From Prosthecobacter sp. (GTDB lineage Bacteria > Verrucomicrobiota > Verrucomicrobiia > Verrucomicrobiales > Verrucomicrobiaceae): a stretch of DNA of 64,000 nt. The translations under genes were made by a program, and so were the position numbers. Location: contig NZ_JBJXFV010000065.1 of the NCBI RefSeq assembly GCF_046154365.1, forward strand, positions 2,006 through 66,005, written 5' to 3'. Each line of letters opens with the position of its first letter. Within the stretch, counting starts at the first letter, position 1. The notes beneath the pieces were generated by a model. That model saw only the letters and a list, made by a program, of their open reading frames with translations. It searched no databases and was not told the DNA's origin. Below are positions 14,267 through 49,216 of the stretch, in pieces.

Positions 14267-15670
14267 TTACGCGAGCAGTTCTTTGATCACGCCGTGGCCT
14301 TCGAGGCCGGTGAGGCGTTGTTGGAGGCCGTTGTGGTAGAAGGTCAGCTTTTCGTGGTCGATGCCGAGCAGGTGAAGGGCGGTGGCGTGCAGTTCGTAGC
14401 TGTGGGTGATTTTTTCGACGGCTTTGAAGCCGAGTTCATCCGTGCTGCCGTAGCCGGTGCCGCCCTTGATGCCGCCGCCTGCCATCCAGGCAGTGAAGGC
14501 TCCGGCGTTGTGGTCGCGGCCTTTGCCTGCGCCTTGCGCGGAGGGTTGGCGGCCAAACTCAGTGGTGCAGATGACGAGCGTCTCATCCAGCAGGCCGCGT
14601 GATTTGAGATCAGCGAGCAACGCACTCGCACCAGTGTCGAGAACGCCCCCCCAGTAGCCATGATCGCGCACCAGATCTTCATGGCTGTCCCAGTTCGGGC
14701 GGATTTTTTTCGCCGTGGTGTTTTCAGCGCCGCAGTAGATTTGAATGAAGCGCACACCGCGCTCCGCGAGTCGGCGTGCCATCAGGCACTGTCGGCCAAA
14801 GGGGCCGCGCTCGGGATCGTCGAGCGCGTAGAGTTTGTTGGTGAGTTCGGTTTCTCCAGAGAGGTTGGTGACTTCGGGCGCGCTGAGTTGGAGTCGTGCG
14901 GCCATCTCATACGCAGCGATGCGCGCATCGAGTTCGGTGTTGGCGGCGCGTGTTGCGCGGTGCTGCACATTGAGTTTTTGCAGGAAGGCCAGCGTCTGCT
15001 GATCTTGCTGCCGAGTGGTAAAATCCTTCGGCGGGAAGAGATCTGCGATGGGTTGCTCGGCGTTCGTGGCATCGAGCGTGGTGGCCTGATGCACGGCGGG
15101 AAGAAAGCCCGCGCCCCAGTTGATCGGACCGCCGGGCGGGAGTCCACGTGGATCAGGCAGCACGACGAATGACGGCAGATTGTCGCTCTCACTGCCGAGT
15201 CCGTAGGTGACCCATGCGCCCATGCTGGGGAAGCCGGGCAGCGTCTGACCCGTGTTCATCATGAAGCAGCCGGGGCCGTGCAGCGCGGTCTTGCTCTGCA
15301 TGGAGTAGATGAACGCCATGTTATCGACCTGCGTGGCGAGTTTTGGGAAGAGATTGCTCACCCAGCGCCCGCTCTCGCCGTGTTGTTTGAAGGGATAATA
15401 GCTCGGCTGGCAGTTGCCTGGCTTCGACGCAAAGAACTGCATCTTCCCATCGGGATCGAAGGGTTTGCCCGCGCGTTTGATCAGCTCTGGCTTGAAATCA
15501 AAGGTGTCCACGTGGCTCATGCCACCTGGGCAGAAGATCTGGATGACGCGCTTCGCTCTCGCCGTGTGATGCGGCTGCGCGCCGCGAGCGAGCATGGAGG
15601 TCAACGCGAGTCCGCCAAGGCCACCAGCGGCGGTTTGGAGGAAGGATCGGCGTGAGTGAATGGCATTCAT
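14267..15670 (-). CDS. DUF1501 domain protein (sulfatase/alkaline-phosphatase fold, Tat signal)
   Basis: ORF 14267..15703(-), with the start at ATG 15670 (MNAIHSRRSFLQTAAGG). Supporting segments are FCPGGMSHVDTFDFKPEL, GLGSESDNLPSFVVLP and TEFGRQP...GRDHN. Confidence 0.9.
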   Translation of the reverse strand: MNAIHSRRSFLQTAAGGLGGLALTSMLARGAQPHHTARAKRVIQIFCPGGMSHVDTFDFKPELIKRAGKPFDPDGKMQFFASKPGNCQPSYYPFKQHGESGRWVSNLFPKLATQVDNMAFIYSMQSKTALHGPGCFMMNTGQTLPGFPSMGAWVTYGLGSESDNLPSFVVLPDPRGLPPGGPINWGAGFLPAVHQATTLDATNAEQPIADLFPPKDFTTRQQDQQTLAFLQKLNVQHRATRAANTELDARIAAYEMAARLQLSAPEVTNLSGETELTNKLYALDDPERGPFGRQCLMARRLAERGVRFIQIYCGAENTTAKKIRPNWDSHEDLVRDHGYWGGVLDTGASALLADLKSRGLLDETLVICTTEFGRQPSAQGAGKGRDHNAGAFTAWMAGGGIKGGTGYGSTDELGFKAVEKITHSYELHATALHLLGIDHEKLTFYHNGLQQRLTGLEGHGVIKELLA

Positions 15671-15723
15671 GGAAATGAAATGGAGAGTTGATGCCGCACA
15701 CAATTCTGTGCTAGCCTGCCAGC

Positions 15724-16029: not shown

Positions 16030-16382
16030 GCTTTCTCTGGAGCCTCGCAGACACTGGTGAGGACGATATTGACCGTCAGATGATCTGGTATGAGTCGGAT
16101 GAGTCTCACGGCGGAGCTGTGCTGGCGAACCGGTGGAGTGATCTATTGAGATTGGCACTCGATAAGCTGGCGCTTTCACCACATCGTCATGGGTTCGCCC
16201 CTGAGAGCGGTAAATGGATGCCACAATACGAAATCCGCCAGATGCTCTTTCGCCCCTGGAAGACAGGCGTTGGTTGGCGCGTGCTCTATACCATCGACGA
16301 AGCCAGGAAACTCGTGACGATCCTCCAAATCCGTCACGAGCACCGGCGGTGGCTGTTCGAGGCTGAGGATGACGAAAGCTAG
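16026..16382 (+). CDS. type II toxin, ParE/RelE superfamily
   Basis: ORF of 118 aa. The C-terminal WRVLYTIDEARKLVTILQIRHEHR is typical of ParE/RelE. It is coupled to the Phd-like gene. Confidence 0.75.
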   Translation: MSFLWSLADTGEDDIDRQMIWYESDESHGGAVLANRWSDLLRLALDKLALSPHRHGFAPESGKWMPQYEIRQMLFRPWKTGVGWRVLYTIDEARKLVTILQIRHEHRRWLFEAEDDES

Positions 16383-31413: not shown

Positions 31414-31686
31414 TCAGCGATAGATCGCGTGAGTGCCGATGTCCACACTCACGACATCGGCACCATCCAAATAGAACACAGCTCGCAGATTCCCTTCGAT
31501 CCAAACGGAATGAATGGTGCGGCCAAAACGCGCGGAAAGACTGGCGATCCGGTGTGTTTTAAGCCTTGGATCAAAAGGATCCTCCTTGAAGATGAACCAC
31601 GCGCGGCGTGCCGACGACTGCTGACTTTCCGTGAGCCTGGCATAGGACCGCCAGAACTGTGGCGTGGCACGGTAACGACGGTCCAT
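31414..31686 (-). CDS. type II toxin, RelE/ParE superfamily
   Basis: ORF 31414..31689(-) begins at GTG, and ATG 31686 overlaps the antitoxin stop (TGATG). DPFDPRLKTHRIASLSARFGRTIHSVWIEGNLRAVFYLDGADVVSVDIGTHAIY fits the RelE/YafQ-like pattern. Confidence 0.75.
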   Translation of the reverse strand: MDRRYRATPQFWRSYARLTESQQSSARRAWFIFKEDPFDPRLKTHRIASLSARFGRTIHSVWIEGNLRAVFYLDGADVVSVDIGTHAIYR

Positions 31687-31874
31687 CACACCGGGGGAAA
31701 TTGGAAATGTTGGTCTTCCATGTCCAGCAATTCACCACGCCGCGCCTCCGCCATGCCTTGCAGGAACGATTCGGGAATCAGCGTCTCTTCCAGCTCATGA
31801 ACATGCATGAACACCTGCTCCTTTTCTTCCTGAGGGAGTCGGTCGATTTCAGCAATAAGCTGCGTGGCGGTCAT
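31686..31874 (-). CDS. small antitoxin (addiction-module-component-like)
   Basis: Lies inside ORF 31686..31910(-), with the start at ATG 31874 (MTATQLIAEIDRLPQEEKEQV). This N-terminal pattern resembles small 'putative addiction module component' antitoxins. Confidence 0.6.
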   Translation of the reverse strand: MTATQLIAEIDRLPQEEKEQVFMHVHELEETLIPESFLQGMAEARRGELLDMEDQHFQFPPV

Positions 31875-31940: not shown

Positions 31941-32744
31941 TCAAGCGCCCAGCGCCTTGCTCTTTTCCGACGCTGCACGCACGGCTTGGATCAGGGCATT
32001 TCGCAAACCGTGCTGCTCCAGCCTTTCGAGGCCAGCAATCGTCGTTCCGCCGGGGCTGGTGACTTCATCGCGTAATGAAGCGGGATGCTTGCCAGTCTCG
32101 AGCACCATTTCGGCGGCTCCGGCCACGGTTTGCGCGGCGAGACGCAGTGCAATAGCACGCGGCAGGCCCATGAGCACGCCGCCATCGGCCAGCGCCTCGA
32201 TCACGGTGTAAATGTAGGCCGGACCGCTGCCGGAGAGACCCGTGACGGCATCGAGCAGCTTTTCAGCGACTTCATCCGCCGTACCAACGGCACCGAGGAT
32301 CTTCGTGGCGAGTGCGGCGTCTTTCGTGGTGGCTTTGCTGCCGCGTGTGAAGGCGGCGGCACCCTGGCCCACGAGCGCGGGCGTGTTCGGCATGCTGCGG
32401 ATGACACGCTGTCTGCTACCGAGCCATGCTTCGAGATTTGTCAGCGAGATGCCGGCGGCGATGCTGAGATAAAGCCGCGAGCCTTTGACCTCGGCGAGTG
32501 TTTCACACAGCGCCCGTATGTCGCCGGGTTTCACCGCGAGGATGATCACATCCGCCGCCGCCGCCACTTCGGCGGGCGTGCCGGTGATGGATTTGCATGA
32601 GAGGCATTTCCGCAGCGAGTTCACCGCCTCTGGCACCACATCGCTGAGCGCCACCTGCAGGCCACCTTTGCCAAGCGCCTGCTCCACGCCGCGCAGCAGC
32701 GCGCCGCCCATTTTTCCACAGCCGATGAGTCCGAGTTTCAACAT
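31941..32744 (-). CDS. proC: pyrroline-5-carboxylate reductase
   Basis: This is the C-terminal 267 codons of ORF 31941..33491(-), with the start at ATG 32744 (MLKLGLIGCGKMGGAL). Supporting segments are RSMPNTPALVGQGA, SGSGPAYIY and SPGGTTIAGL. The upstream extension of the ORF is the antisense shadow of the kinase gene. Confidence 0.9.
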   Translation of the reverse strand: MLKLGLIGCGKMGGALLRGVEQALGKGGLQVALSDVVPEAVNSLRKCLSCKSITGTPAEVAAAADVIILAVKPGDIRALCETLAEVKGSRLYLSIAAGISLTNLEAWLGSRQRVIRSMPNTPALVGQGAAAFTRGSKATTKDAALATKILGAVGTADEVAEKLLDAVTGLSGSGPAYIYTVIEALADGGVLMGLPRAIALRLAAQTVAGAAEMVLETGKHPASLRDEVTSPGGTTIAGLERLEQHGLRNALIQAVRAASEKSKALGA

Positions 32745-32846
32745 GCCCGCGACTGTGCGGCGGAAGTGCCATCGTGCAAGTGCGCCAATCTTTCCTTGCG
32801 CACAGGGGAGGGTCTTTGCCATGCTGCGGTTAATTGCTCGCAAAAA

Positions 32847-34397
32847 ATGTACACCGACGACTTCCAGCCTGAAAAACTCCTCGCCATAGGACCGGCGGCG
32901 AAGGTGTATCGCGGTATCGAAACGGCGACCGGACGCAAGGTGCTGCTTAAAGTGCTGCTGAACGATTACGAGGCCCCGCACCCGCTGGATCGCGAAAAAT
33001 TGCAGCTCCTCGCGCCCTTGCTCATGCAGGTGCGTCATCCGCAGATCGCCGGACTCATCACCCTGCTGCCTACGGAGGACGAGTTCGCACTGGTCTATGA
33101 ATTCATGCCGGGAGTGAACGCCCGGGACTTCGCCGCCGAGCGCCAGCCCGGGCCTGCGGATGTGCGTGCGCTCGCGGTGCAGTTGATGCAGGCGCTGCTC
33201 GTCGGCGAGCATCTGCGCCAGCCACATGGCGACCCCAAACCGAGCAACCTCATCATCGCTGATCATCCCGGCGGCGGCTTGTTCCTCCAAGTGCAGGACT
33301 GGGGTCTGTCGCTGGCACGCACGACGCTGCCACCGGAAACACTGTGGTTCCGTGCGCCGGAACTGCACGCCGGCGGCCGGCCGACATCGCAAAGCGATCT
33401 GTTCACCGCCGCCGCGAGTTTGTTCTGCATCGCCACTAACACCGCTCCGGCTCAAGGCGAAACCGTGGAGCAAGTCATGGCCGACTGGCATGCCTTCACC
33501 ACCAATCAGGTTCTAAAGCAGGTGCGGCTGGATTTGGATCAGCCGCTGCGTGACTGGCTGGCTTGGCTGCTCAACATGATGCCGCAGCAGCGGCCGCAGT
33601 CGGTGGCACAGGCGCTCGATGTGCTGATGGCGGGGATGCACCCCGGCTTCACTTACATGCCGCAGGAGGCACCAGCCATGGCGCCCGGCACGCAGACTGC
33701 ACAACTCGCCGCCGCCTCACATCCCAACGCGCCGAAGCCAAGGCCGATCATAGCGAAAGCCGCGCCCACAACATCGCACGGGATGAAACAATCCAACACG
33801 CCTGCTGCGACAGCGGCACCTGTGGTGAAGCAGCGTTCTGTCGGTCGCATTTTGGCCATGGTGCTGTTGAACGTCGCTGCCTTGGGCATCGCCGGCTTTT
33901 TCCTGTGGCCCATGCTCCGCAGCACCGAGGAGCAGACATCATCCAGTGTGAAAAGTACTGGCAAAACAGCGCCGAGCGCCGGTCTGCGGGGGCGTTATGT
34001 GCGCGTCGAGATATGGCGCAAAGACGTCCTCAACCTCGCGGAAGTCCAGGTCTTCAGCGGTATGGTGAACCTTGCCCGCCAAGGCACCGCCACCCAGAGC
34101 AGTGTGGAATGGGGAGGCGTGCCGGAGTTTGCCATCGACGGCAACACCGACGGCGTGATGGATCACCATAGCGTCTCACACACTCACAGAGATACGACAA
34201 ACCCGTGGTGGCAGCTTGACCTGAAAAGCGAAGTGAGCCTGAACACCATCATCATCTGGAACCGCACGGACGCGAAGTATGCAGGTCATCTGGAAAACTT
34301 TACCGTCAAGGTCTTGAACGAGCAGCAGAAAGTGGTCTGGGAGACGAAAGTGGTGCAACCGCCCACGCCCAGTGTCACGCTGCCGGTGGGCGGATAA
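32847..34397 (+). CDS. receptor-like atypical Ser/Thr kinase: cytoplasmic kinase-like domain, one TM helix, extracytoplasmic F5/8-type-C (discoidin) / F-type-lectin-like domain (paralog A)
   Basis: Lies inside ORF 32766..34397(+), with the start at ATG 32847 (MYTDDFQPEKL). Kinase landmarks are a degenerate Gly loop IGPAAKVYRG, VLLKVL, HGDPKPSNLII, QDWG and RAPELH. The TM helix is ILAMVLLNVAALGIAGFFLW. The lectin-like region is YVRVEI..LNLAEVQVF..GTATQSS..AIDGNTDG..HT..NPWWQLDL..IIIWNRTD. Confidence 0.75.
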   Translation: MYTDDFQPEKLLAIGPAAKVYRGIETATGRKVLLKVLLNDYEAPHPLDREKLQLLAPLLMQVRHPQIAGLITLLPTEDEFALVYEFMPGVNARDFAAERQPGPADVRALAVQLMQALLVGEHLRQPHGDPKPSNLIIADHPGGGLFLQVQDWGLSLARTTLPPETLWFRAPELHAGGRPTSQSDLFTAAASLFCIATNTAPAQGETVEQVMADWHAFTTNQVLKQVRLDLDQPLRDWLAWLLNMMPQQRPQSVAQALDVLMAGMHPGFTYMPQEAPAMAPGTQTAQLAAASHPNAPKPRPIIAKAAPTTSHGMKQSNTPAATAAPVVKQRSVGRILAMVLLNVAALGIAGFFLWPMLRSTEEQTSSSVKSTGKTAPSAGLRGRYVRVEIWRKDVLNLAEVQVFSGMVNLARQGTATQSSVEWGGVPEFAIDGNTDGVMDHHSVSHTHRDTTNPWWQLDLKSEVSLNTIIIWNRTDAKYAGHLENFTVKVLNEQQKVVWETKVVQPPTPSVTLPVGG

Positions 34398-34505
34398 GGC
34401 AAGGCGCATGCTTTCCCATGTGGCTGGCGGCGGCTTTCGTGCCGCCAATCTTCGCTTGCACAACGCGCATGGTTCTTGCGATGCTGCTGCAAATCGCCGC
34501 CCAAA

Positions 34506-36155
34506 ATGCCCGCCGACCACTTTCAGCCCGAAAAACTCATCGCCGCCGGACCTTCGGCGAAGGTGTATCGCGGCATGGAACCAGCCACTGGGCGCAAGGT
34601 GCTGATCAAAGCGCTGCTGCACGATCATGAGACCGCGCAGCCGCTGGATCGCGAGCAGTTGCAACTGCTCGCCCCATCGCTCATGCAGCTGCGCCATCCG
34701 CAGATCGCGGGACTCATCACCCTGCTGCCCACGGAGGATGAGTTTGCGCTCATCTATGAATTCATGCCGGGATTGAACGCGCGCGCCTTTGCAGCGGAGC
34801 GCAAACCGACGCCGACCGATCTCCGTGCGCTCGCGGTGCAGCTCATGCATGCGCTGCTGGTGGGCGAGCATCTGCGCCAGCCGCATGGCGATCTGAAACC
34901 GAGCAACCTCATCATCGCCGACCACCCTGGCGGCGGCTTGTTCCTCCAGGTGCAGGACTGGGGCCAGTCGCTGGCACGCAGGGAGCATCCGCCGGAGACG
35001 CTATGGTTTCGCGCACCCGAACTCCACGCGGGCGGCACACCGACGACGCAAAGCGATCTGTTCACCGCCGCCGCGAGCCTGTTCTGCATCGCCACCAACA
35101 CCGCACCTGCCCAAGGTGACACCGTGGAGCAGGTCATGACAGACTGGCGGGCATTCAACGCCGGACAGGTGCTCAGCCACATGCGTCCTGATTTGGACCA
35201 GCCGTTGCGCGACTGGCTGGGCTGGCTGCTCAATCTCGCCCCACAACAGCGTCCACACTCAGTGGCGCAGGCACTGGATGCCTTGATGCTCAGCATGCAG
35301 ACCGGCTTCACCTACATGCAGCAGCAGGCACCGGCCATGGCGCCCGGTACGATGACCGGACCATTGGTCTCGGCTGTGCATCCCAATACGCCCAAGCCGA
35401 AACCGATTGTGCCCAAGTCATCGCCCGCAGCAGCCGCACAGCCAGAAGCGGCGGCGAAACAAGGTTCCGGCAGCCGTTTCTTGATCGCCGTGGTGCTCAA
35501 TCTCGCCGCCTTCGTGCTGAGCGGCATTTTCCTCTGGCCGTTCATTCGTGAAGCGATCTCTGATTGGAAATTCACCACCACTGCAAGCAGCACGGTCAAA
35601 GCCGCCGCCATGGCTCCGCCATCCGCACCGGACCACGCTGGCAAACCAACGCCCACGGTTACGCAAGCCAAGTCTGCTGTGACCACCAGCGTCGCGAAAC
35701 CGCCGGTGGCTCCCGCTGCGAGCGGTCCCGGCTTGAACGGGCGTTTTGTGCGCATCGAGATCCCCGTCAGCCGCGGTATTCTCAACCTCGCTGAAGTGCA
35801 GGTCTTCAGCGGTGGCGAGAATCTCTCTCTCAAAGGCACCGCCACGCAGAGCAGCGTCAGTGGCGAAGGAAGGCCCGAACTAGCCATCGACGGCAACACG
35901 GATGGCGACAAGACCAAGAACAAAAGCGTCATGCACACCAATGGCAACGCACGCGGCGCGCCGTGGTGGGAGGTCGATCTCGGTCGCGATGCGCCGGTGC
36001 AGACCATCGTCATCTGGAATCGCACTGACGCGGAATACGGTGACCGCACCGTGAACCTCACAGTGCAGGTGCTCGACGCGGAAAAGCAGGTTGTTTGGCA
36101 GAAAAAGGGCCTCCCAAAGCCCGACCCGTCGCTCGAACTCGCTGTCGGCCAATGA
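34506..36155 (+). CDS. receptor-like atypical Ser/Thr kinase with an F5/8-type-C / F-type-lectin-like ectodomain (paralog B)
   Basis: Lies inside ORF 34476..36155(+), with the start at ATG 34506 (MPADHFQPEKL). Kinase landmarks are AGPSAKVYRG, VLIKAL, HGDLKPSNLII, QDWG and RAPELH. The TM helix is FLIAVVLNLAAFVLSGIFLW. The lectin-like region is FVRIEI..LNLAEVQVF..GTATQSS..AIDGNTDG..HT..APWWEVDL..IVIWNRTDAEYGDR. Confidence 0.75.
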   Translation: MPADHFQPEKLIAAGPSAKVYRGMEPATGRKVLIKALLHDHETAQPLDREQLQLLAPSLMQLRHPQIAGLITLLPTEDEFALIYEFMPGLNARAFAAERKPTPTDLRALAVQLMHALLVGEHLRQPHGDLKPSNLIIADHPGGGLFLQVQDWGQSLARREHPPETLWFRAPELHAGGTPTTQSDLFTAAASLFCIATNTAPAQGDTVEQVMTDWRAFNAGQVLSHMRPDLDQPLRDWLGWLLNLAPQQRPHSVAQALDALMLSMQTGFTYMQQQAPAMAPGTMTGPLVSAVHPNTPKPKPIVPKSSPAAAAQPEAAAKQGSGSRFLIAVVLNLAAFVLSGIFLWPFIREAISDWKFTTTASSTVKAAAMAPPSAPDHAGKPTPTVTQAKSAVTTSVAKPPVAPAASGPGLNGRFVRIEIPVSRGILNLAEVQVFSGGENLSLKGTATQSSVSGEGRPELAIDGNTDGDKTKNKSVMHTNGNARGAPWWEVDLGRDAPVQTIVIWNRTDAEYGDRTVNLTVQVLDAEKQVVWQKKGLPKPDPSLELAVGQ

Positions 36156-36176: not shown

Positions 36177-39155
36177 ATGCGGCGGGCACTGATTTCGCAT
36201 GTGAGTCCGGCGTATGAATCTCCAATCGTGAAAAGCTCCCCAGCCCTTCTTTTGTTCCTGCTCGCGTCGCCCGCCGCCGCTATCGACTTCGTTCGGGACA
36301 TCCAACCGATCTTCAGTGAGCACTGCTACCAGTGCCACGGCCCGCACAAGCAGGAAGCCGCGTTCCGTCTCGATCACAAGCCCAGCACTCTTAAAGGCGG
36401 CGACTTCGGCATCGCCATCGTTCCCGGCAAGGCCGAGGAGAGCCGCCTCATGCACGCCGTGCTTGGCACGAATCCAAAAATTCGCATGCCACGCAAAGGC
36501 GGTCCGCTCACCGCCGATCAAATCGCGAAGCTCAAAATCTGGATCGATACCGGAGCCATTTGGCCGGACAGCGCGAGCGTGAAGCTCGAGCAAAAAACTG
36601 ATCATTGGGCTTTCAAGCCGCCCGTGAAGCCGAAAGTGCCCGCGAATGCCAAGCATCCCATTGATGCGTTCATCCGTGAGCGCCTCGAAAAAGAAGGCCT
36701 CCAACCTTCACCAAGAGCCGCGCCGGAAACCCTGCGTCGTCGCTTGCACCTTGATCTCGTGGGCCTGCCGCCGGATCCGTCCGACCTGTCAGACCCGTCA
36801 GACTTGTCCGACAAACTTCTGCAGTCCCCCCACTTCGGCGAACGCTGGGCACGTCACTGGCTCGACGCCGCACATTATGCCGACAGCAACGGCTATGAGA
36901 AAGACCCCATGCGCTTCATCTGGTTCTATCGTGACTGGGTCATCAGCGCCTTCAACCGCGACCTGCCCTACGACCAGTTCATCATCCAGCAGCTTGCCGG
37001 CGATCAGCTTCCCAAGCCCACGCAGGATCAAATCGTCGCCACCGGCTTTCTGCGCAACACCATGGTCAACGAAGAAGGCGGCGTCGATCCCGAGCAGTTC
37101 CGCATGGAGGCCATGTTCGACCGCATGGACACCATCGGCAAAAGCATCCTCGGCCTCACCATCGGCTGCACGCAGTGCCACAACCACAAGTACGATCCCA
37201 TCACGCAGGAGGAGTACTACCGCATGTTCGCCTTCCTCAACAACGACAACGAGCCATGGCGCGTCGTGTACACCGCCAGCGAGCAGATGCAGCGCTCCAC
37301 ATTGCTTGCTCGCATCGCCGAACTCGAAGCCAAGCTCAAACACGATCATCCCGACTGGCAGCAGCGCATGAACGCCTGGTCCACCGGCATCAAGACCGCG
37401 CAGCCGAAATGGCGCACGCTCAGTTTTGAAGACGATCCCTCCGGCGGCGAAAAAGCACTGCGTCAGGCGGATGGCAGCATCCTTGCACAAGGCTACGCGC
37501 CGACGAAATCCGAGGTGAAGTTCGTGGTGAAGCTCGAAACGCCCGTCACTATCAGCGCTTTCCGGCTCGAACTCATGAACGACCCCAATCTGCCCGCCTA
37601 CGGCCCCGGACGTTCGCAGAAAGGCACCGCCGCCCTCACCGAGTTCAACGTGGAGATGAAGATCGACGGCAAGATGACGAAGCTGAAGTTTGTCAAAGCC
37701 AGCGCCGACTTTGGCGAGCCGGAGAACACGCCGCTCGCGCCGTTTGCCCGCGATCAAGACGCCGCGAAAGACAAACGTGTCACCGGACCAGTGAGCTACG
37801 CCATCGACGGCAACGACAAAACCGCCTGGGGCATCAATGCCGGTCCCGGCCGCCGCAACGTGCCGCGCAACGCCGTCTTCGTGCTCGAAAAACCCGTCGA
37901 GGTGAAACCTGACGTCGAACTCACCGTCGGCCTCAGCATGAAACACGGCGGCTGGAACAGTGATGACCTGCAAACCATGAATCTCGGCCGCTATCGCATC
38001 AGCAGCACCGAAGCGCCCAATGCGGAGGCCGATCCACTGTATGGCAAGAAGTCCGAGTTCACCGCCTTCCGCACCACCGTCCCCGAGTGGAAATCCATCA
38101 ATGACGAAATCGAAGCCGCATGGCAGCAGCACCCTGAAGGCACCACCACGCTCGTGCTCGATGCACGCGACCAGCCGCGCATGACCGCGCTGCTAAAACG
38201 CGGTGACTTTACCAAACCCGGCGGTTCAGTCACCGCTGGCGTGCCCGCCATCCTCAATCCACTCCCGCAGAACGCGGATGGCAGCCGTTTGACCTTCGCG
38301 AAGTGGCTGGTGAGCAAACAATCGCCCACCACGGCCCGTGCTTTCGTCAATCGAGTGTGGCAGACCGTTTTCGGCACCGGTTTGGTCGAAACCGCCGAAG
38401 ACTTCGGCACGCAGGGCAGCCCCCCGAGTCATCCTGAACTGCTCGACTGGCTCGCCGCCGACTTCATGGAGCACAACTGGAGCACCAAGCATCTGCTGAA
38501 GCTGATCATCACCAGCGAAACCTATCAGCAGTCCAGCAACGTCACGCCGCAACTCCTCGAACGCGATCCCTACAACCGCCTCCTCGCTCGCGGACCGCGA
38601 TTCCGCGTCGAGGGTGAAGTCGTGCGCGACATCCAACTCGCCGCCAGCGGCCTGCTCAATTCCGAAGTCGGCGGACGTCCTGTCATGCCGCCAGCACCCG
38701 CGCATCTCTTCGAAAAACCCGCCAGCTACGCGCCCTTCCCGTGGAAAGTCGAGGACGGTGCTGAGAAGTATCGCCGCAGCGTTTATGTCTTCCGCCGCCG
38801 CAGCACGCCGTATCCGTTTTTGAGCACCTTCGACGTGCCCAACGGCGAATCCTCCTGCATTCGTCGCTCCAAGAGCAACACACCATTGCAGGCGCTCATG
38901 ACGCTCAATGAAACCATGAGCATGGAGACCGCCAAGGCCCTCGGTGAACGCATGTGGCTGGAAGGTGGCGCTAATGATGCCTCTCGCATCGCCCACGGCT
39001 TCAAACTCTGCACCGGTCGTGCTCCGAGCACCAAAGAAGCCGCCGTCCTCCTTGCGATGCTGAAACGCCACCAGTCCCAGCCCGGCGAGATTGACCCACA
39101 CACCCTCGTCGCCCGCGTCCTGCTTAATCTCGACGAGACGATCACGAAGGAGTGA
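36177..39155 (+). CDS. PSCyt1 (CxxCH) - DUF1549 - DUF1553 giant secreted protein
   Basis: ORF of 992 aa. In-frame GTG 36228 would give a cleaner signal peptide (VKSSPALLLFLLASPAAA). Motifs are CYQCHG, RRRLHLDLVGLPPDPSD, FGERWARHWLDAAHYADSNG and CTQCHNHKYDPITQEEYY, plus an internal discoidin-like region with AIDGNDKTAWG. Confidence 0.9.
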   Translation: MRRALISHVSPAYESPIVKSSPALLLFLLASPAAAIDFVRDIQPIFSEHCYQCHGPHKQEAAFRLDHKPSTLKGGDFGIAIVPGKAEESRLMHAVLGTNPKIRMPRKGGPLTADQIAKLKIWIDTGAIWPDSASVKLEQKTDHWAFKPPVKPKVPANAKHPIDAFIRERLEKEGLQPSPRAAPETLRRRLHLDLVGLPPDPSDLSDPSDLSDKLLQSPHFGERWARHWLDAAHYADSNGYEKDPMRFIWFYRDWVISAFNRDLPYDQFIIQQLAGDQLPKPTQDQIVATGFLRNTMVNEEGGVDPEQFRMEAMFDRMDTIGKSILGLTIGCTQCHNHKYDPITQEEYYRMFAFLNNDNEPWRVVYTASEQMQRSTLLARIAELEAKLKHDHPDWQQRMNAWSTGIKTAQPKWRTLSFEDDPSGGEKALRQADGSILAQGYAPTKSEVKFVVKLETPVTISAFRLELMNDPNLPAYGPGRSQKGTAALTEFNVEMKIDGKMTKLKFVKASADFGEPENTPLAPFARDQDAAKDKRVTGPVSYAIDGNDKTAWGINAGPGRRNVPRNAVFVLEKPVEVKPDVELTVGLSMKHGGWNSDDLQTMNLGRYRISSTEAPNAEADPLYGKKSEFTAFRTTVPEWKSINDEIEAAWQQHPEGTTTLVLDARDQPRMTALLKRGDFTKPGGSVTAGVPAILNPLPQNADGSRLTFAKWLVSKQSPTTARAFVNRVWQTVFGTGLVETAEDFGTQGSPPSHPELLDWLAADFMEHNWSTKHLLKLIITSETYQQSSNVTPQLLERDPYNRLLARGPRFRVEGEVVRDIQLAASGLLNSEVGGRPVMPPAPAHLFEKPASYAPFPWKVEDGAEKYRRSVYVFRRRSTPYPFLSTFDVPNGESSCIRRSKSNTPLQALMTLNETMSMETAKALGERMWLEGGANDASRIAHGFKLCTGRAPSTKEAAVLLAMLKRHQSQPGEIDPHTLVARVLLNLDETITKE

Positions 39156-39780: not shown

Positions 39781-41052
39781 TCAGCCCCACAGGCTCTGCA
39801 ACACTTCGGCTTCCTTCAAGCCGAGCGGGAATTTCTTGCTGAACGGATGATCGACGATGCCCGCGAACTGACGCAGCGCGTGATAGATGTGTTCGGGGCG
39901 GACGCGGACGCCTTTGGCTTTGTCGGTGGCGAGTGTGTGCGGATTGAGCGGCACATGGAGCTGACCGTCGTCGGTGGCACCAAGGACGCGGTTGCCTTTG
40001 ATGCCGGGGCCAATGAACATGATGGAGCCGACGGACCAGTGGTCTTTGCCATTGCCTTTGTTGTAGTCCGGCGTGCGGCCCATTTCGCTTTGAATGATGA
40101 CGACGAGCTTGTCGCGGATCTTGAGTTCCTCCGCGCGGCGGATGAAATAGGCGATGCCAGCGAGGAACTCGGGGATGAGCTTCATTTGATCGACATCGTT
40201 GTTCGCGTGGCTGTCGAACTGGCCAATGCTGAGATTTGCGGAGACACAGACGCCCGCCTTGAAGGAAGCGAGTGCGATCTCGGCCTGTTGTGAGAGACGT
40301 TCCTTCGGGATGCTCTTCGGAATGAACGGCGTGACACGTTGCAGGGCCTTGGAGTTCACCTGCGCGGCATAGAGCATGCTTTGCGCACGTTCCTGACGCG
40401 GGAGACGGATTTGAGAAGTACGGGCGGCATTTTGCTCCTCCAGCGCCCGCTCGATGCGGTCGAGAGCGAAGTCGTCGTGGTAGGGTGAACGCGGATTGCC
40501 TTCAACGAAGTCAGCGTTGGCGATGCGCTGGAGCGATTGCGGATACGGCACACGCGACATGGCGACGACGTTGCCAGTGTTAGAGTAATTGCCGAAGGTG
40601 AGGAACGAGATCGGGCACGTCGGGCCTTTGCACGCGGCGACGAGGGCGGCGAAGGTCGGGTAGGCGAGGCTGTCGAGCTTGCCGGTGGCCATGTAGCGTG
40701 CGCCGGGCGAGTGATTATTCACCGAGTAGTCGAGGCCATTGAGCGTGAGCAGCTCGCTGCCGAACTCCTTATAGAAGTCCTCGTTGCTCATGCCGGCCTG
40801 GATGTGTTTCGCGTTGGGCGCGAACTTGTGCGTGCCGTGCGTGAGGATGTCGCCCTCTTTGTAGAGGCGGTTGATTTCGTTGATACCCTTCGGGTCCATC
40901 AGGTAGGTGGTGTCCCAGCCGCCGGAGGCATTGAACACGACGTAATATGGCCCCTCGTAAGCCGGGTTTTCCTTTGACGCAGCGCATAGGGCACGCGGAA
41001 TCGAAAGACCGAGTCCGGCGAGCGTGCAGCATTTGATGAAGTCGCGTCTCAT
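39781..41052 (-). CDS. divergent DUF1501-like protein (Tat signal, sulfatase fold)
   Basis: ORF of 423 aa. It has MRRDFIKCCTLAGLGL. NASGGWDTTYLMDPKG replaces the canonical GG.SH.DTFD.KP. The C-terminal SEMGRTPDYNKGNGKDHW matches the DUF1501 motif sEFGRtP...GrDHw. Confidence 0.75.
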   Translation of the reverse strand: MRRDFIKCCTLAGLGLSIPRALCAASKENPAYEGPYYVVFNASGGWDTTYLMDPKGINEINRLYKEGDILTHGTHKFAPNAKHIQAGMSNEDFYKEFGSELLTLNGLDYSVNNHSPGARYMATGKLDSLAYPTFAALVAACKGPTCPISFLTFGNYSNTGNVVAMSRVPYPQSLQRIANADFVEGNPRSPYHDDFALDRIERALEEQNAARTSQIRLPRQERAQSMLYAAQVNSKALQRVTPFIPKSIPKERLSQQAEIALASFKAGVCVSANLSIGQFDSHANNDVDQMKLIPEFLAGIAYFIRRAEELKIRDKLVVIIQSEMGRTPDYNKGNGKDHWSVGSIMFIGPGIKGNRVLGATDDGQLHVPLNPHTLATDKAKGVRVRPEHIYHALRQFAGIVDHPFSKKFPLGLKEAEVLQSLWG

Positions 41053-43326: not shown

Positions 43327-43410
43327 CGGGCAGTGATTCAAACGTGAACGACTGGAGTTACTTTCCTCGGCAACAGGCCGCCGCTTCATCCCGTAGGTTT
43401 GTGCCCCCTG

Positions 43411-46029
43411 ATGAAGCTGACGCCTGCTGTTTTCCTTTGCTCCCTCGCCGTGACTGCTCACGGCGCAGACGCCGTGCTCACATTTGAAAAGGACGTGCGG
43501 CCGATCTTAAAGACGCACTGCACGCATTGCCATGGCGAGGAGGAGAAGCCCAAGGGCGGACTCGATCTGCGGTTGCGGCGGTTCATGGACAAGGTGCTCG
43601 ATGAGGGCAAGCATGTCCTTGTACCGGGACAGCCGGAGAAAAGTGAGATGGTGCAGCTCATTCGCAGCGGCGAGATGCCGCAGAAGGGCGCGAAGATGTC
43701 GGCGGCGGAACTGGCGGTGATTGAGAAATGGATCGCGCAAGGTGCGAAGACGGCGAAGACGGAGCCGCTAGTGCTTGCGCCGGGACCGCTGATTTCCGAT
43801 GAGGATCGTGAGTATTGGGCCTTCCAGCCGGTGAAACGGCCTGCAGTTCCTCAAATCGTAAATCATAAATCAAGAATCATAAATCCGATTGATGCGTTCC
43901 TGCTGCACACGATGCGCGAGAAGGGGCTCGACTTTGCGCCTGAAGCAGATCGGCGAACGTTGATCCGGCGTGTGACGCTCGATTTGACCGGTCTGCTGCC
44001 GACGCCGGAGGAAGTGGAGGCATTTGTCGCGGATCAGTCGCCGGCGGCCTATGAGCAGCTCGTGGAGCGCCTGCTGGCGTCAAAAACTTATGGCGAGCGT
44101 TGGGCGCGGCATTGGCTGGATGTGGTCGGCTATGCGGACTCGAATGGTTACTCGGAGGCGGATTCGGTGCGCCCGCAGGCATGGCGTTATCGTGACTATG
44201 TGATTCGCTCGATGAACGAGGACAAGCCGTGGAGCGAGTTCATTCAAGAGCAGCTCGCGGGTGATGAACTCGCCGGTGCCACGCATGGCGATTATCAGCA
44301 GGCGGTGCTCGATCCGAAGCGTCGGGATGACCTCACGGCCACTGCTTTCCTGCGCATGGCCCCCGATGGCACAGGCGATGGCGCGGATGATCCAAAGCTC
44401 GCGAAGAATCAAGTCATTGCCGAGCAGATGAAAATCGTGACCTCGTCGCTCATGGGCATGACGGTGGCGTGCGCGCAATGTCACGATCATCGCTACGATC
44501 CGATCACGCAGGCCGACTATTACCGGCTGCGTGCGATCTTTGATCCTGGCTACAACTGGGAGGCGTGGCGTGCACCGGCGCAGCGGCTTTACTCGCTTTA
44601 CACGCCGGAGGAACGAGCGAGGGCGAATGAGATCGAAAAGCGCGTGGGCGACATCAATCGTGAAGCGCAGGCAATGAGCAAAAAGTTTCTCGACGAAATC
44701 TTCGAGGTCGAAATTCTCAAGCTCCCGGAAGCCGAACGCGCATCGTTCCGCGTCGCACGCGCCACGCCGAAGGACAAGCAAACACCGGAGCAGAAGGCGC
44801 TCATCAAGAAGTATCCGTCAGCACTCGCGACCTATTCGCTTGATCTCTACGACAAGAAGAAACAGGATTTGGTGCTCGCCAAGATGGCGGAGGGCGAAAA
44901 GCTGCGCGAGACGAGGCCAGCCGAGGGCTTCGTGATGGCGCTCACGGAAATGAAAGGTCAGACCCCGGCTAGCAAACTCTTCAATCGCGGGGATCACGAT
45001 CAGCCGAAGCAAGTCGTGACTCCTGGCGAGTTGAGCGTCATCGCGAAACCGGAGATCGAGCCGTTCAAACCGGCCACGGTGAGCACGGGATCCTCCGGTC
45101 GTCGTCTCGCGTATGCGCAGTGGCTCACGTGCGGCAAGCATCCGCTCGTCGCCCGCGTGCTGGTGAACCGCTTTTGGTTGAATCACATGGGTCGCGGCAT
45201 CGTGAACACACCCGGCGATTTCGGCAGGCAGGGTGAATTGCCCACGCATCCCGAACTGCTCGACTGGCTCGCCGATGAGTTTATGAAGGGCGGCTGGGAA
45301 TTGAAACCGCTGCACCGGCTCATCCTGCTGAGCACCGCGTATCGGCAGTCGTCATCGTCCGATGCCTCGCTGCGTGCCGATCCGGAGAACAGGCTTTACG
45401 CCCGCTTCAAAATGCACCGCCTTGATGCCGAGACGCTGCGCGACTCGATGCTCGCGGCGACGGGTTCTTTGATTCAGGCGAGCTACGGACCGCCGAGCGG
45501 CATCGGACGCGATCCGTCGGGACGCGTCGTTGTCGGCATCGACAAAGGCACCATCACCGCCAACAAAGTGGAGAGCGCTGGCGCGGATGACTTCCGCCGC
45601 TCCATCTATGTGCAGGTGCGCCGCAGCCGGCCGGTCACCGTGCTCGACACCTTCGATGCGCCCACCATGGTGCCGAACTGCGAGATGCGCGCCCAGACCA
45701 CCGTCGCTCCGCAGTCGTTGCTGCTGATGAACGACACCTTCATCCTCGATAACGCACGCCGTCTCGCCGACCACTTGCAGGCGCAGGCGCCGGATGATCG
45801 CCGCACGCAGCTTCAGCGCGCCTGGAATCTGCTCTACAGCAAGCCGCCGACCGAAGCCGACCTCGTGCGCAGTCTGTCGTATCTCGATGAGCAGACGAAA
45901 GCGCTCACGCAATACCATCACGACATCCAACACGCGAAGGGCGTGCCCAAGCCCAATCCACCGCAGGAGGCGATGGCCAGCCTGTGTCAGATCTTGTGCA
46001 GCTCGAACCGGTTTTTGTATGTGGAGTGA
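43411..46029 (+). CDS. PSCyt (CxxCH) - DUF1549 - DUF1553 giant secreted protein
   Basis: ORF 43399..46029(+) begins at TTG, and I prefer ATG 43411 (MKLTPAVFLCSLAVTAHG). Motifs are CTHCHG, LIRRVTLDLTGLLPTPEEVEAF, YGERWARHWLDVVGYADSNG, CAQCHDHRYDPITQADYY and the C-terminal SSNRFLYVE. Confidence 0.9.
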   Translation: MKLTPAVFLCSLAVTAHGADAVLTFEKDVRPILKTHCTHCHGEEEKPKGGLDLRLRRFMDKVLDEGKHVLVPGQPEKSEMVQLIRSGEMPQKGAKMSAAELAVIEKWIAQGAKTAKTEPLVLAPGPLISDEDREYWAFQPVKRPAVPQIVNHKSRIINPIDAFLLHTMREKGLDFAPEADRRTLIRRVTLDLTGLLPTPEEVEAFVADQSPAAYEQLVERLLASKTYGERWARHWLDVVGYADSNGYSEADSVRPQAWRYRDYVIRSMNEDKPWSEFIQEQLAGDELAGATHGDYQQAVLDPKRRDDLTATAFLRMAPDGTGDGADDPKLAKNQVIAEQMKIVTSSLMGMTVACAQCHDHRYDPITQADYYRLRAIFDPGYNWEAWRAPAQRLYSLYTPEERARANEIEKRVGDINREAQAMSKKFLDEIFEVEILKLPEAERASFRVARATPKDKQTPEQKALIKKYPSALATYSLDLYDKKKQDLVLAKMAEGEKLRETRPAEGFVMALTEMKGQTPASKLFNRGDHDQPKQVVTPGELSVIAKPEIEPFKPATVSTGSSGRRLAYAQWLTCGKHPLVARVLVNRFWLNHMGRGIVNTPGDFGRQGELPTHPELLDWLADEFMKGGWELKPLHRLILLSTAYRQSSSSDASLRADPENRLYARFKMHRLDAETLRDSMLAATGSLIQASYGPPSGIGRDPSGRVVVGIDKGTITANKVESAGADDFRRSIYVQVRRSRPVTVLDTFDAPTMVPNCEMRAQTTVAPQSLLLMNDTFILDNARRLADHLQAQAPDDRRTQLQRAWNLLYSKPPTEADLVRSLSYLDEQTKALTQYHHDIQHAKGVPKPNPPQEAMASLCQILCSSNRFLYVE

Positions 46030-46340: not shown

Positions 46341-46415
46341 GGCGAGGTAGCAAAGTGGTAATGCACTGGTCTGCAAAACCGGTATGCGCGGGTTCAATTC
46401 CCGCCCTCGCCTCCA
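46341..46415 (+). tRNA. tRNA-Cys (anticodon GCA), CCA encoded
   Basis: Folded by hand. The acceptor stem is GGCGAGG/CCTCGCC (7 bp perfect). The D arm is GCA-AAGTGGTAA-TGC. The anticodon arm is CTGGT-CTGCAAA-ACCGG. The variable loop is TATGC, the T arm is GCGGG-TTCAATT-CCCGC, and the discriminator T is followed by CCA. Confidence 0.9.
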
Positions 46416-46654
46416 CTTTGAAATTCAATGGTTTACGTAGTGAAGTTCGGAAAGTAAGAACACGTTCGGCCACCTCCCATGATGTTTGAGGAGAGTCAGA
46501 GGCTTTGATCAAGTTTGGCCAACATTTTGAGTTTCCGGGCGTGCCCTAGAGTGAAACTTCGCAACAGTGGATTTCATCGGCTTGCTTCGAGGAAGGCGCT
46601 CTGTTAGCCGTGCCATGCCAGATGCCACCATTTCGCGCGTATAAATTTCATCGA

Positions 46655-48103
46655 ATGAACCGCCCGCATCTCTGCTCACGCCGTCACTTTCTTCATGCTA
46701 ATGGCTTCGGCCTTGGCACGCTCGGGCTTGCTTCGTTGCTGGAACGCGACGGGCTTCTCGCCGCACCGGTGAAGCCGGAGTTGTTTGGTGCGGCGCGTTA
46801 CGATCTGACGCCGAAGAAGCCGCACTTTGAGCCGCGGGCGAAGGCGATGATCTCGATGTTCATGATGGGCGGTCCGTCGCAGATGGATCTGTTCGATCCG
46901 AAGCCGATGCTGACGAAGTATGACGGCCAGAAGTTCCCCGGTGAGATCAAATACGACAACCTAGCGCAGGCGTCGTCGAAGTGCTTCGGCTCGCCGTGGA
47001 AGTTCGCGAAGCAGGGGCAGTGTGGCATGGAGTTGAGCGAGTTGCTGCCGAATCTGAGCAAGGTGGTGGATGACATCACGCTGATTCGTTCGATGACCTC
47101 CGGCGTGAGCAATCACGCGCAGGGCCTCTACGCGATGAATGCGGGACGCAGCGTGGCGGGGCGTCCGGCGCTGGGCTCGTGGCTCACCTATGGCCTCGGC
47201 AGCGAGACGGACAATCTGCCTGCCTACATGGTGCTCTCGCATCCCGGCGGTCTGCCCACTTTCCAGGGCGAGCATTTCACCAACGGCTGGCTGCCCTCGC
47301 TGTTCCAGGGTACGCTAATCCGGCCTACCGAGCCGCGCATTTTGAATCTCGATCCGCCGCCATCGCTCGCTGGTGCTCCGCAGGATCGCCAGCTCGCGTT
47401 GTTGAAGGCCTTCAACGAAGAACATCTCGCGCAGCATCCTGGCGAACTCGACTTGCAGGCACGCATTTCCAGCTACGAACTCGCGGCGAACATGCAGACC
47501 GCTGCGAAGGAGGCGCTCGACATCTCGAAGGAGCCGGAGCACATCAAGAAACTCTACGGCGTGGACAATCCGGCGACGAAAGATTACGCCACGCGCTGCA
47601 TCATCGCGCGTCGTCTTGTCGAGCGCGGCGTACGCTATGTGCAGGTGCTCAATGCAGGCCAGTCGTGGGATCAACACGGCGGTCTCATCACGGCGCTGCC
47701 AAAGAATTGCGAAGCCACCGACCAGCCGAGCGCCGCACTGCTCATTGATTTGAAACAACGCGGCCTGCTCGACACCACTGTCGTGCATTGGGGCGGCGAA
47801 ATGGGTCGTCTGCCCGTGCTGCAAAACGACGCGGGCCGCGAGAAATGGGGCCGCGATCACAACACCTACGGCTTCAGCATGTGGGTCGCCGGTGGCGGCT
47901 TTAAAAAAGGCCATATCCACGGCGAAACCGACGAGTTCGGCCACAAGGCCATCATCGACGAGGTAAAGCACTTCGATTATCACGCCACGCTGCTCAAACT
48001 CTTCGGCCTCGACCACAGCAAGCTCACCTACAAGCGCAACGGCCTCGCTGCGAGCCTCACGGACAATCAGGGCGCGAAGGTGGTGGAGCAACTCATCGCA
48101 TAA
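46655..48103 (+). CDS. DUF1501 domain protein (Tat signal)
   Basis: Lies inside ORF 46610..48103(+), with the start at ATG 46655 (MNRPHLCSRRHFLHANGFGLG). Supporting segments are MMGGPSQMDLFDPKP, GLGSETDNLPAYMVL and GGEMGRLP...GRDHN. Confidence 0.9.
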   Translation: MNRPHLCSRRHFLHANGFGLGTLGLASLLERDGLLAAPVKPELFGAARYDLTPKKPHFEPRAKAMISMFMMGGPSQMDLFDPKPMLTKYDGQKFPGEIKYDNLAQASSKCFGSPWKFAKQGQCGMELSELLPNLSKVVDDITLIRSMTSGVSNHAQGLYAMNAGRSVAGRPALGSWLTYGLGSETDNLPAYMVLSHPGGLPTFQGEHFTNGWLPSLFQGTLIRPTEPRILNLDPPPSLAGAPQDRQLALLKAFNEEHLAQHPGELDLQARISSYELAANMQTAAKEALDISKEPEHIKKLYGVDNPATKDYATRCIIARRLVERGVRYVQVLNAGQSWDQHGGLITALPKNCEATDQPSAALLIDLKQRGLLDTTVVHWGGEMGRLPVLQNDAGREKWGRDHNTYGFSMWVAGGGFKKGHIHGETDEFGHKAIIDEVKHFDYHATLLKLFGLDHSKLTYKRNGLAASLTDNQGAKVVEQLIA

Positions 48104-49121: not shown

Positions 49122-49216
49122 GCGCCAAGGGTGCTCTCCCGGCCCCGATCTGTCAACGCTCCAAACCACGGAGAAACCATAGAGAGACCCGTCACCGACA
49201 GCGTTTGTTTCACCGC

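Follow-up and report, generated by a model that had tools for sequence, protein, structure and literature searches.

Tandem genes of Prosthecobacter sp. for predicted receptor-like Ser/Thr kinases with a circularly permuted F-type lectin ectodomain

Two adjacent paralogous genes, designated here A and B, lie in a 64,000-nucleotide stretch of Prosthecobacter sp. DNA (assembly GCF_046154365.1, contig NZ_JBJXFV010000065.1, positions 2,006 to 66,005 of the forward strand), which we refer to as the window and from which all coordinates are counted. Each of them encodes a protein that joins an N-terminal kinase domain of Hanks-type fold, through a single hydrophobic segment, to a C-terminal domain of the F-type lectin fold (F-lectin domain, FLD). 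We are moderately confident that the best explanation of this architecture is a pair of bitopic receptor Ser/Thr kinases, in which a periplasmic, permuted F-lectin sensor would drive kinase signalling. The features of the two genes on which this reading is based are as follows.

32847..34397, + strand: paralog A, 516 aa, predicted bitopic Ser/Thr kinase of Hanks type that ends in a permuted F-type lectin domain (open reading frame (ORF), Pfam, orthologs P0024/P0028)
32847..33641, + strand: kinase domain of A, aa ~1-265, with GPAAKV loop, K35, HGDPKPSN, DWG and APE (Pkinase match 9-255, motifs read in the sequence)
33849..33917, + strand: predicted transmembrane helix of A, aa 335-357, ILAMVLLNVAALGIAGFFLWPML (sole hydrophobic segment of A)
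33981..34061, + strand: transposed strand pair of A, aa 379-405, GLRGRYVRVEIWRKDVLNLAEVQVFSG, corresponding to the canonical C-terminal F-lectin strands (alignment to Sm-hPAF chain residues 122-146)
34062..34394, + strand: F-lectin core of A, aa 406-516, with AIDGN cation motif and HX27RXDX5H (sequence alignment)
34506..36155, + strand: paralog B, 549 aa, architecture as in A (ORF, Pfam, homologs)
34506..35300, + strand: kinase domain of B, aa ~1-265, with GPSAKV, K35, HGDLKPSN (D129, K131, N134), D151-W-G, A170-P-E, D184 and R249 (Pkinase match 8-256, conservation, AlphaFold2 (AF2) model and Foldseek)
35301..35477, + strand: predicted cytoplasmic juxtamembrane segment of B, with conserved positions (family alignment)
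35478..35546, + strand: predicted transmembrane helix of B, aa 325-347 (sole hydrophobic segment)
35547..35729, + strand: predicted extracytoplasmic stalk of B, Ala/Pro/Thr/Ser-rich, ~60 aa; the stalk of A is ~40 aa shorter (sequence)
35730..35816, + strand: transposed strand pair of B, aa 409-437, GLNGRFVRIEIPVSRGILNLAEVQVFSGG (de-permutation test; predicted local distance difference test score (pLDDT) 91-96)
35817..36152, + strand: F-lectin core of B, aa 438-549, with AIDGN, H477, R506, D508 and R514 (HX28RXDX5R; alignment, Foldseek)

Paralogy and the kinase domain

The start codons of A (ATG at 32847, MYTDDFQPEKL) and B (ATG at 34506, MPADHFQPEKL) both fit the family consensus MxxDxFQPEKLL. 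The products are 61% identical over their full length, with 80% identity between the kinase domains and 52% between the ectodomains, in agreement with an initial annotation of this DNA, which had estimated by eye that the kinases are about four-fifths identical and that the lectins have diverged more. The same annotation had described tandem paralogs with a kinase-linker-transmembrane helix-ectodomain layout; the ORFs, the Pfam matches and the single hydrophobic segment of each protein (residues 335-357 in A and 325-347 in B) bear it out, and the motif strings that it had listed are all present (GPAAKV/GPSAKV, HGDPKPSN/HGDLKPSN, DWG, APE, AIDGNTDG, HT…PWW(Q/E)(L/V)DL, and IWNRTDAKYAGH in A and IWNRTDAEYGDR in B). 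The Pfam Pkinase profile matches A with 66.5 and B with 71.5 bits (cutoff 31.7), over profile positions 3-257 of 263, F5_F8_type_C_2 with 45.6 and 44.0 bits (cutoff 27.8), and F5_F8_type_C with 33.0 and 31.8 bits (cutoff 28.2). As a kinase needs ATP, the kinase domain is presumably cytoplasmic and the lectin periplasmic (N-in/C-out).

Conservation within the family was computed on 122 aligned full-length homologs. K35, D129, K131, N134, D151, P171/E172 and D184 are invariant in all of them and A170 is kept in 121, so that the motifs H127-G-D129-x-K131-P-S-N134, D151-W-G153 and A170-P-E172, as well as R249, are invariant or nearly so. The canonical GxGxxG, HRD and DFG are absent; their places are taken by an A-x-G-P-x-A loop, HGD and DWG, none of which varies within the family. 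They make the kinase atypical, and their canonical forms are not required for Hanks-type membership. The atypical loop reads G15-P16-x-A-K19-V-Y-R-G23 throughout the family and, when aligned to CDK2, corresponds to A-x-G-x-x-A, with the central Gly retained and the small Ala at the flanking Gly positions. HGD is a mark of non-RD kinases, and DWG is also found in the constitutively active CK2α. Since every catalytic residue is strictly conserved, it can be argued that this non-RD, DWG-type kinase is probably active, and the invariance of these residues lends weight to the initial description of the two kinases as active but atypical. No conserved phospho-acceptor occurs at the T-loop position of the family alignment. 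In the juxtamembrane segment of B, residues P276, G281, T284, L287, P296, P298 and P300 are conserved at 90% or more, which is unusually high for a linker, and this segment with its near-invariant Thr284 may serve as an autophosphorylation or docking site.

The AF2 model of the kinase has a predicted template modelling score (pTM) of 0.78, with pLDDT of 90-96 in the C-lobe and 52-78 in the N-lobe. A Foldseek search with this model returned at least 2000 kinase matches, with PknA, PknB, Stk1, CDK2 and Pho85 at the top and TM-scores up to 0.82. The best PDB sequence matches of the kinase of B (34506-35330) are CDK2, CDK1, Kin28 and Pho85 (~54 bits, 24-26% identity) and not PknB, while the structure of the model is about equally close to PknA, PknB and Stk1 and to the CDKs. 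Pfam, the PDB sequence search, AF2 and Foldseek thus agree on the kinase fold that had been proposed for the N-terminal domain, and A and B are of Hanks-type fold without clear subgroup membership. A true CDK orthology was rejected, as the ranking of PknA and PknB among the CDKs reflects a generic similarity of Hanks folds. A role in a defence system was rejected as well: the matches to NCBIfam MADS6, BREX PglW and other kinase models are far below the cutoffs and concern the kinase domain only.

The comparison with CMGC kinases (CDK2, CDK1, Kin28, Pho85) indicates a common FQxxEKIGxG-like start and a segment, ETLWFRAPE, that resembles their VTLWYRAPE, but A and B lack the cyclin-binding PSTAIRE helix as well as a T-loop Thr equivalent to T160 of CDK2, and they are predicted to be membrane-anchored. 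In their predicted arrangement, namely a cytoplasmic Hanks kinase, a juxtamembrane linker, one transmembrane helix and an extracytoplasmic glycan-binding module, they resemble the PASTA kinases M. tuberculosis PknB, S. aureus Stk1 and S. pneumoniae StkP, and PknA, PknB and Stk1 can be superposed on the model at TM-scores up to the value given above. However, the sensor of A and B is an F-type lectin and gives no PASTA match, and the NCBIfam model PknB_PASTA_kin (NF033483) scores 57 (A) and 51 (B) bits against a cutoff of 450, in the kinase part only. The HGD, the DWG and the atypical Gly loop, a sequence closer to CDK2, and the Gram-negative, verrucomicrobial host are further differences. On these grounds A and B fall outside the PknB/Stk1 PASTA kinase family. 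Single-pass receptor kinases with a discoidin- or lectin-type β-sandwich ectodomain are also represented by DDR1/DDR2 and by the plant lectin receptor kinases. In those proteins the ectodomain is N-terminal, opposite to the order in A and B, and their origin is independent, with no orthology; moreover, the DDRs are tyrosine kinases, the discoidin domain of which binds collagen and not fucose. We regard both groups as conceptual analogues only.

The permuted F-type lectin ectodomain

When the PDB was searched by phmmer with the ectodomain of A, only F-type lectins were significant, namely striped-bass FBP32 (E-value 1.6e-21), S. mitis lectinolysin/Sm-hPAF (3e-20), two S. pneumoniae SP2159 modules (5e-17 and 5e-16) and eel agglutinin (9e-7). 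The ectodomain of B was modelled by AF2 from 73 sequences with pLDDT 92 and pTM 0.88, and the use of this model as a Foldseek query against PDB placed bacterial fucose-binding F-lectin modules at ranks 1-9 (rmsd 1.4-2.6 Å, 31-36% identity, target-normalised TM-score 0.69-0.73), several of these structures having been solved with fucose or Lewis antigens. No non-FLD fold had an E below 0.03 in that search. The fold is therefore the one common to SpX-1/SpX-3 of SP2159 (2j1r, 2j1t, 2j22) and lectinolysin (3le0, 3lei, 4gwi), and the C-terminal domain, which had initially been proposed to carry a carbohydrate-binding fold, does carry one, specifically that of F-type lectins.

What the initial annotation missed is the circular permutation of this domain. 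Results of our alignments indicate that the last two strands of the canonical order (RYVRIE…LAEVQVF) stand at its N-terminus. In the phmmer alignment of A, the N-terminal 'GRYVRVEI…LNLAEVQVF' pairs with Sm-hPAF chain residues 122-146 and the remainder with residues 11-98. In the Foldseek matches of B, only ~112 of the 151 ectodomain residues align sequentially because a strand pair is transposed, and it is also because of the permutation that the Pfam F5/8 models match only by their first ~60-75 positions. In a de-permutation test the first 29 ectodomain residues of B were moved to its C-terminus and the product was realigned to the F-lectins of PDB. For all single-domain F-lectins of bacteria, residues 1-139 of the de-permuted domain aligned without interruption to chain residues 10-145 (of 153), with bit scores above those of the native order (60.0 vs. 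54.8, 59.3 vs. 51.7 and 56.1 vs. 51.7), of which only residues 30-123 aligned. FBP32, a tandem-domain protein, was the one exception in favour of the native order (77.1 vs. 70.2 bits), which there spanned the junction of two domains. In the model of B, the transposed strands (pLDDT 91-96) form an integral part of the sandwich. Such a pattern is the classical signature of a permutant that would have originated by duplication and truncation.

Relatives of the ectodomain among small environmental proteins comprise 65 permuted, 42 canonical (often PEP-CTERM) and 13 ambiguous ones. An exhaustive representative search yielded 6,617 relatives, led by giant tandem F-lectin-repeat proteins, to which the query aligns across the boundaries between repeats; tandem F-lectin arrays are thus a plausible source of the permuted module, and the dominance of these giants leaves no basis for counting single permuted domains in that search. 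We found no description of a permuted F-lectin in the literature, and the CIRPIN paper is silent on this fold. Apart from the permutation, in which the old termini are joined by 'SGG', the domains of A and B differ from the bacterial FLDs named above in the H-to-R spacing (27-28 vs. 26) and in context: here the domain is carried by a transmembrane kinase and would face the periplasm of a diderm, while theirs belong to a cytolysin or a glycoside hydrolase.

F-type lectins are characterised by the fucose motif HX24RXDX4(R/K) and the cation motif h2DGx, and the Ca2+ site of eel agglutinin also uses Cys146/Glu147 of the C-terminal strand (PMC5712786). The corresponding pattern is HX28RXDX5R in B and HX27RXDX5H in A, neither of which has the literal spacing of the eel lectin. 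The three basic residues of B align position for position with those of lectinolysin (HX26RXDX5R), which was crystallised with fucose, and the RXDX5R spacing is identical in both, whereas A has no third basic Arg/Lys but a His. The initially noticed difference between a fucose-type triad in B and a deviating one in A is therefore real (His/Arg/Arg in B, third residue His in A). In the 89 lectin-bearing homologs H477 is conserved in 81, R506 in all 89, D508 in 83 and R514 in 81, and the A-type His occurs at the third triad position of five. The cation motif has the form AIDGN in both paralogs, as in bacterial FLDs, and its columns in the family are conserved in 89 (A), 84 (I), 89 (D), 87 (G) and 70 (N) of ~90 sequences. 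The Ca2+-site Glu of LAEVQVF, which now lies on the N-terminal strand, is present in 88 of 89. As judged from these residues, sugar binding is well supported as a property of the family and the specificity is presumably for fucose, while the replacement of Arg by His in A suggests an altered affinity or specificity.

Distribution of the family and its genomic neighbourhood

Our protein search returned 260 clusters at E < 1e-5, with generic annotations and with those of named organisms coming from Prosthecobacter or Verrucomicrobia, and 79 loci came from a scan in which each species was represented by one genome. The close relatives are all from Verrucomicrobiaceae, that is from Prosthecobacter, Brevifollis and metagenome-assembled genomes (MAGs) of freshwater lakes, the best match being MAG RH-18aug17-267 (92% identity). 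The exact-sequence look-up of protein B gave no match, and homologs P0001, P0003, P0045 and P0054 were used instead; P0001, from the Verrucomicrobiaceae MAG GCA_947471905.1, is its closest relative (92% identical), while the close relatives of A are P0024 and P0028. The kinase gene is usually single-copy and adjacent to proC, and its product is ~70-85% identical across genera. Of the loci examined, only the 92% relative shares the tandem duplication with the window. In one freshwater MAG (locus L032), the kinase-lectin gene is closely followed by a second gene (7886-9544, +; 552 aa), the product of which has a C-terminal F-lectin match and is 40% identical; the N-terminal part of this product does not match the kinase query, and it may be a diverged paralog or another lectin fusion.

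The initial annotation had considered the architecture to be uncharacterised, and this holds in the sense that it is frequent within one bacterial family, but under generic annotations only and with no paper found on it. Our literature search likewise found no description of a bacterial kinase-F-lectin fusion; the 2015 survey of F-lectin domains (Bishnoi et al.), which might list a co-occurrence with kinases, was outside that search.

The lectin is absent in 33 of the 122 sequences, which end with '…DAKGR' exactly at the domain boundary. When the kinases were clustered by identity ranking and the unweighted pair group method with arithmetic mean, all 33 fell into one cluster nested next to B and every other cluster was 100% lectin-positive, which indicates that the lectin is ancestral and was lost once. 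Thus, the lectin appears to be an accessory part of the protein that was lost in one subclade, a point that the initial annotation also missed. Kinase-only relatives of 29-40% identity occur in Verrucomicrobium and in Chthoniobacterales/Spartobacteria, and the distant relatives have either no ectodomain or an unrelated domain of ~270 aa. In two loci of Spartobacteria/Chthoniobacteraceae MAGs (L083 and L086, ORFs from position 6001), a kinase 35-37% identical and of the same transmembrane topology carries such an ectodomain, 'GGSGWDGRWHG…', for which no Pfam match was found. The variety of ectodomains in the distant relatives implies that the sensor position is modular, and suggests the swapping of sensor domains on a conserved kinase chassis.

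The immediate surroundings of A and B comprise the following features.

31941..32750, - strand: proC (pyrroline-5-carboxylate reductase), the divergent upstream neighbour, which marks the conserved locus (Pfam, synteny)
32775..32846, + strand: leader, probably a promoter region, upstream of A, with invariant CAATCTT-n-CTTG … ATG.T (alignment across loci)
34430..34505, + strand: duplicated leader upstream of B, same elements as in the A leader (alignment across loci)
36177..39155, + strand: gene for a protein of PSCyt1 (CxxCH haem c), PSCyt2 (DUF1549) and PSD1 (DUF1553) domains, 992 aa, with signal peptide, 21 nt after B (Pfam, synteny)

The leader of A lies within the ~98-nt divergent intergenic region between proC and the kinase gene. 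Leaders of ~75 nt are alignable upstream of A and B and, in an alignment of 15 loci from different genomes, CAATCTT-n2-3-CTTG is invariant and is followed ~25 nt further on by an ATG.T box. The leader is probably a promoter or operator, and it was duplicated together with paralog B. Our scan for sigma-70 promoters and terminators gave counts at the level of shuffled sequences; in the 21-nt gap between B and the PSD1 gene, it revealed no terminator-like site on the + strand. Probably, the kinase gene is co-transcribed with the PSD1 gene.

The order of divergent proC, kinase gene and PSD1 gene is retained in relatives at 92%, 69% and 57% identity, as well as in a lectin-less ortholog. P. fluviatilis KACC 12649 (locus L056) also carries the lectin-less form of the kinase together with PSD1. 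Neighbours were counted at 69 loci whose kinase shares 50% identity or more, and an orthologous PSD1 gene (76-89% identical) is directly downstream in 31 of them (11 lectin-positive and 20 lectin-negative), at a distance of ~20-130 nt or up to ~0.7 kb. The remaining loci have heterogeneous neighbours. As lectin-positive and lectin-negative loci share this pairing, the kinase-PSD1 pair is a conserved core in one large subclade, independent of the lectin. For the central region (347 aa) of the PSD1 partner, neither Pfam at E ≤ 10 nor a sequence search of the PDB gave a match, and hence no support for carbohydrate binding by this region.

Genes of the DUF1549, DUF1553 and DUF1501 families are present in many copies in this genome, as is generally the case in the PVC (Planctomycetes-Verrucomicrobia-Chlamydiae) superphylum, and the window alone contains four PSCyt/PSD1 genes, four DUF1501 genes and one DUF1552/PSD2-5 pair.

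16379-19243, - strand: PSCyt1-PSCyt2-PSD1 (DUF1549/DUF1553) protein (Pfam), with an NPCBM/NEW2 carbohydrate-binding module in the central region
36177-39155, + strand: PSCyt1-PSCyt2-PSD1 protein, the partner of the kinase genes described above (Pfam)
43399-46029, + strand: PSCyt1-PSCyt2-PSD1 protein (Pfam)
49205-52171, + strand: PSCyt1-PSCyt2-PSD1 protein (Pfam)
14267-15703, - strand: DUF1501 gene
39781-41052, - strand: DUF1501 gene, weak match
46610-48103: DUF1501 gene
58765-60222: DUF1501 gene
54113-55390: DUF1552 (HXXSHH) gene
55387-58077: PSCyt1/PSD3/PSD5/PSD4/PSCyt3/PSD2 gene, with a 4-nt overlap with the DUF1552 gene

The same DUF1552/PSD pair is found downstream of the kinase-PSD1 module in another locus (L007). 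Our literature search found no paper on the function of the DUF1549, DUF1553 and DUF1501 families. The initial annotation had placed the kinases among sulfatases and had considered the sensing of sulfated glycans. The sulfatase context is weak, as the only true sulfatase gene (61223-62815) is 25 kb away and the immediate conserved neighbour encodes the PSD1 protein, and the sensing of sulfated glycans has no specific support. Elsewhere in the window, the gene at 10804-13062 (+) encodes a β-lactamase-family domain fused to the N- and C-terminal domains of exo-β-N-acetylmuramidase NamZ, an unusual architecture that looks like one of peptidoglycan recycling. A small, 91-aa ORF at 31414-31689 (-), between a membrane-protein ORF and proC, has no Pfam match, and tRNA-Cys(GCA) at 46341-46415 (+) is the only Rfam/ARAGORN match in the window.

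Proposed signalling and its alternatives

In the mechanism that we propose, the single transmembrane helix and the flexible Ala/Pro/Thr stalk would place the ~140-aa permuted FLD in the periplasm, where it would bind a sugar of the L-fucose type (axial 4-OH) on a periplasmic or envelope glycan. The ligand-dependent clustering or dimerisation of ectodomains would modulate the kinase, which, as a non-RD, DWG-type enzyme, would need no phosphorylation of the activation loop and would phosphorylate cytoplasmic targets. A functional link is envisaged between the kinase and the periplasmic PSCyt1-PSCyt2-PSD1 haem protein. As the linkage to PSD1 persists in lineages without the lectin, the kinase-PSD1 pair may be the core module and the lectin an added input. 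After the lineage-specific tandem duplication, copy A would have changed the third residue of its triad from Arg to His.

Several observations weigh against this proposal. The conservation of the kinase across genera and that of PSD1 point to a housekeeping role in the envelope and not to a nutrient sensor, and the window contains no gene for a fucosidase, a fucose permease or fucose catabolism. The lectin is lost in about a quarter of the sequences, the core function of which does not need it. More than half of the lectin-bearing loci have no PSD1 neighbour, and little can be concluded from mere adjacency in a genome so rich in PSCyt/PSD1 and DUF1501 genes (the 64-kb window has four of the PSD1 type). 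The literal spacing of the eel motif is found in neither paralog. The Gly loop keeps its central Gly only and the N-lobe is modelled with moderate confidence, so that ATP binding is not assured.

The last of these points could be extended to a pseudokinase scaffold, in which the degenerate Gly loop abolishes productive ATP binding and the protein signals only through its conformation or as a scaffold. The reduction of GxGxxG to A-x-G-P-x-A, the presence of HGD for HRD and of DWG for DFG, and the low to moderate confidence of the N-lobe model would be in line with it. Pseudokinases, however, typically lose at least one catalytic residue, whereas in the 122 homologs the β3 Lys, the catalytic Asp/Lys/Asn, the Mg-binding Asp, the APE, the αF Asp and the αH-αI Arg are all invariant; the loop retains its central Gly with small Ala residues at the flanking positions, and the HGD and DWG variants have counterparts in non-RD kinases and in the active CK2α, respectively. 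We therefore consider a pseudokinase highly improbable. The presence of both domains in one protein could also be an artefact, produced by two genes (for a kinase and for a separate secreted lectin) or by a frameshifted pseudogene, as one ENA assembly splits paralog A of the closest relative into two gene calls (351 aa and 132 aa). The NCBI assembly has an intact 539-aa gene on the same contig, both ORFs of the window are unbroken, and the same fusion is present in 89 of the 122 aligned sequences, which come from independent samples. The intact ORFs and this wide recurrence effectively refute the artefact.

Two other alternatives concern the ligand. The lectin fold could have been re-purposed for a non-sugar ligand, either a protein, e.g., the co-encoded PSD1 protein, or a lipid, as in the C domains of factors V and VIII. 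FVa-C2 indeed provides a case in which the F-lectin/discoidin fold was recruited to bind phospholipid (PMC5712786); in A and B, the loops of the binding site might be reshaped by the permutation and by the longer distance from H to R, and the third Arg is no longer present in A. Against this, 81-89 of the 89 members keep the three basic residues and the Asp of the RxD salt bridge, whereas FVa-C2 is devoid of the triad; moreover, the lectin-less orthologs keep the PSD1 partner and hence the lectin is not needed for that association. A non-sugar ligand seems improbable in the light of these data. Rather unlikely, but to be taken more seriously, is a self-directed function similar to that of PASTA modules, in which the lectin would tether a housekeeping kinase to some part of the cell's own envelope that contains fucose (lipopolysaccharide, capsule or glycoprotein) for monitoring or localisation, and the kinase-PSD1 pair would regulate envelope biogenesis or growth. 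It differs from the explanation that we prefer only in the origin of the ligand. The single-copy state, conserved position and 70-85% identity of the kinase, the 76-89% identity of the PSD1 partner, the dispensability of the lectin in one subclade and the lack of fucose-utilisation genes nearby in the 64-kb window all speak for it. Nothing in this analysis, however, shows fucose in envelopes of Verrucomicrobiaceae, and the exchange of ectodomains among distant relatives would agree just as well with a sensing of the environment.

If the sensing of fucosylated glycans is accepted, a broader reading can tentatively be formulated, namely that A and B are the first representatives of a bacterial 'lectin receptor kinase'. 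It would be a Verrucomicrobiaceae-wide core module in which the permuted F-lectin reads periplasmic fucosylated glycans and relays the signal via a constitutively primed, CDK/CK2-like non-RD kinase, together with the PSCyt1-PSCyt2-PSD1 haem protein, and the permutation would be a previously undescribed natural F-lectin topology that arose from arrays of tandem FLDs. Extracellular ligands are known for only a few of the Hanks-type receptor kinases of bacteria, with the muropeptide-binding PASTA kinases as the paradigm. A bona fide lectin as the ectodomain of such a kinase would add sugar sensing to the classes of input, with L-fucose as a tractable ligand hypothesis. The permutation is a clear case from nature in a lectin fold that has been studied well, of relevance to lectin engineering and to homology detection. 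The pairing of the kinase with PSD1 is a rare entry point to the function of DUF1549, DUF1553 and DUF1501 proteins and, should the lectin receptor kinase reading be true, it would provide the first functional handle on the very large, uncharacterised DUF1549/DUF1553 families of the PVC superphylum.

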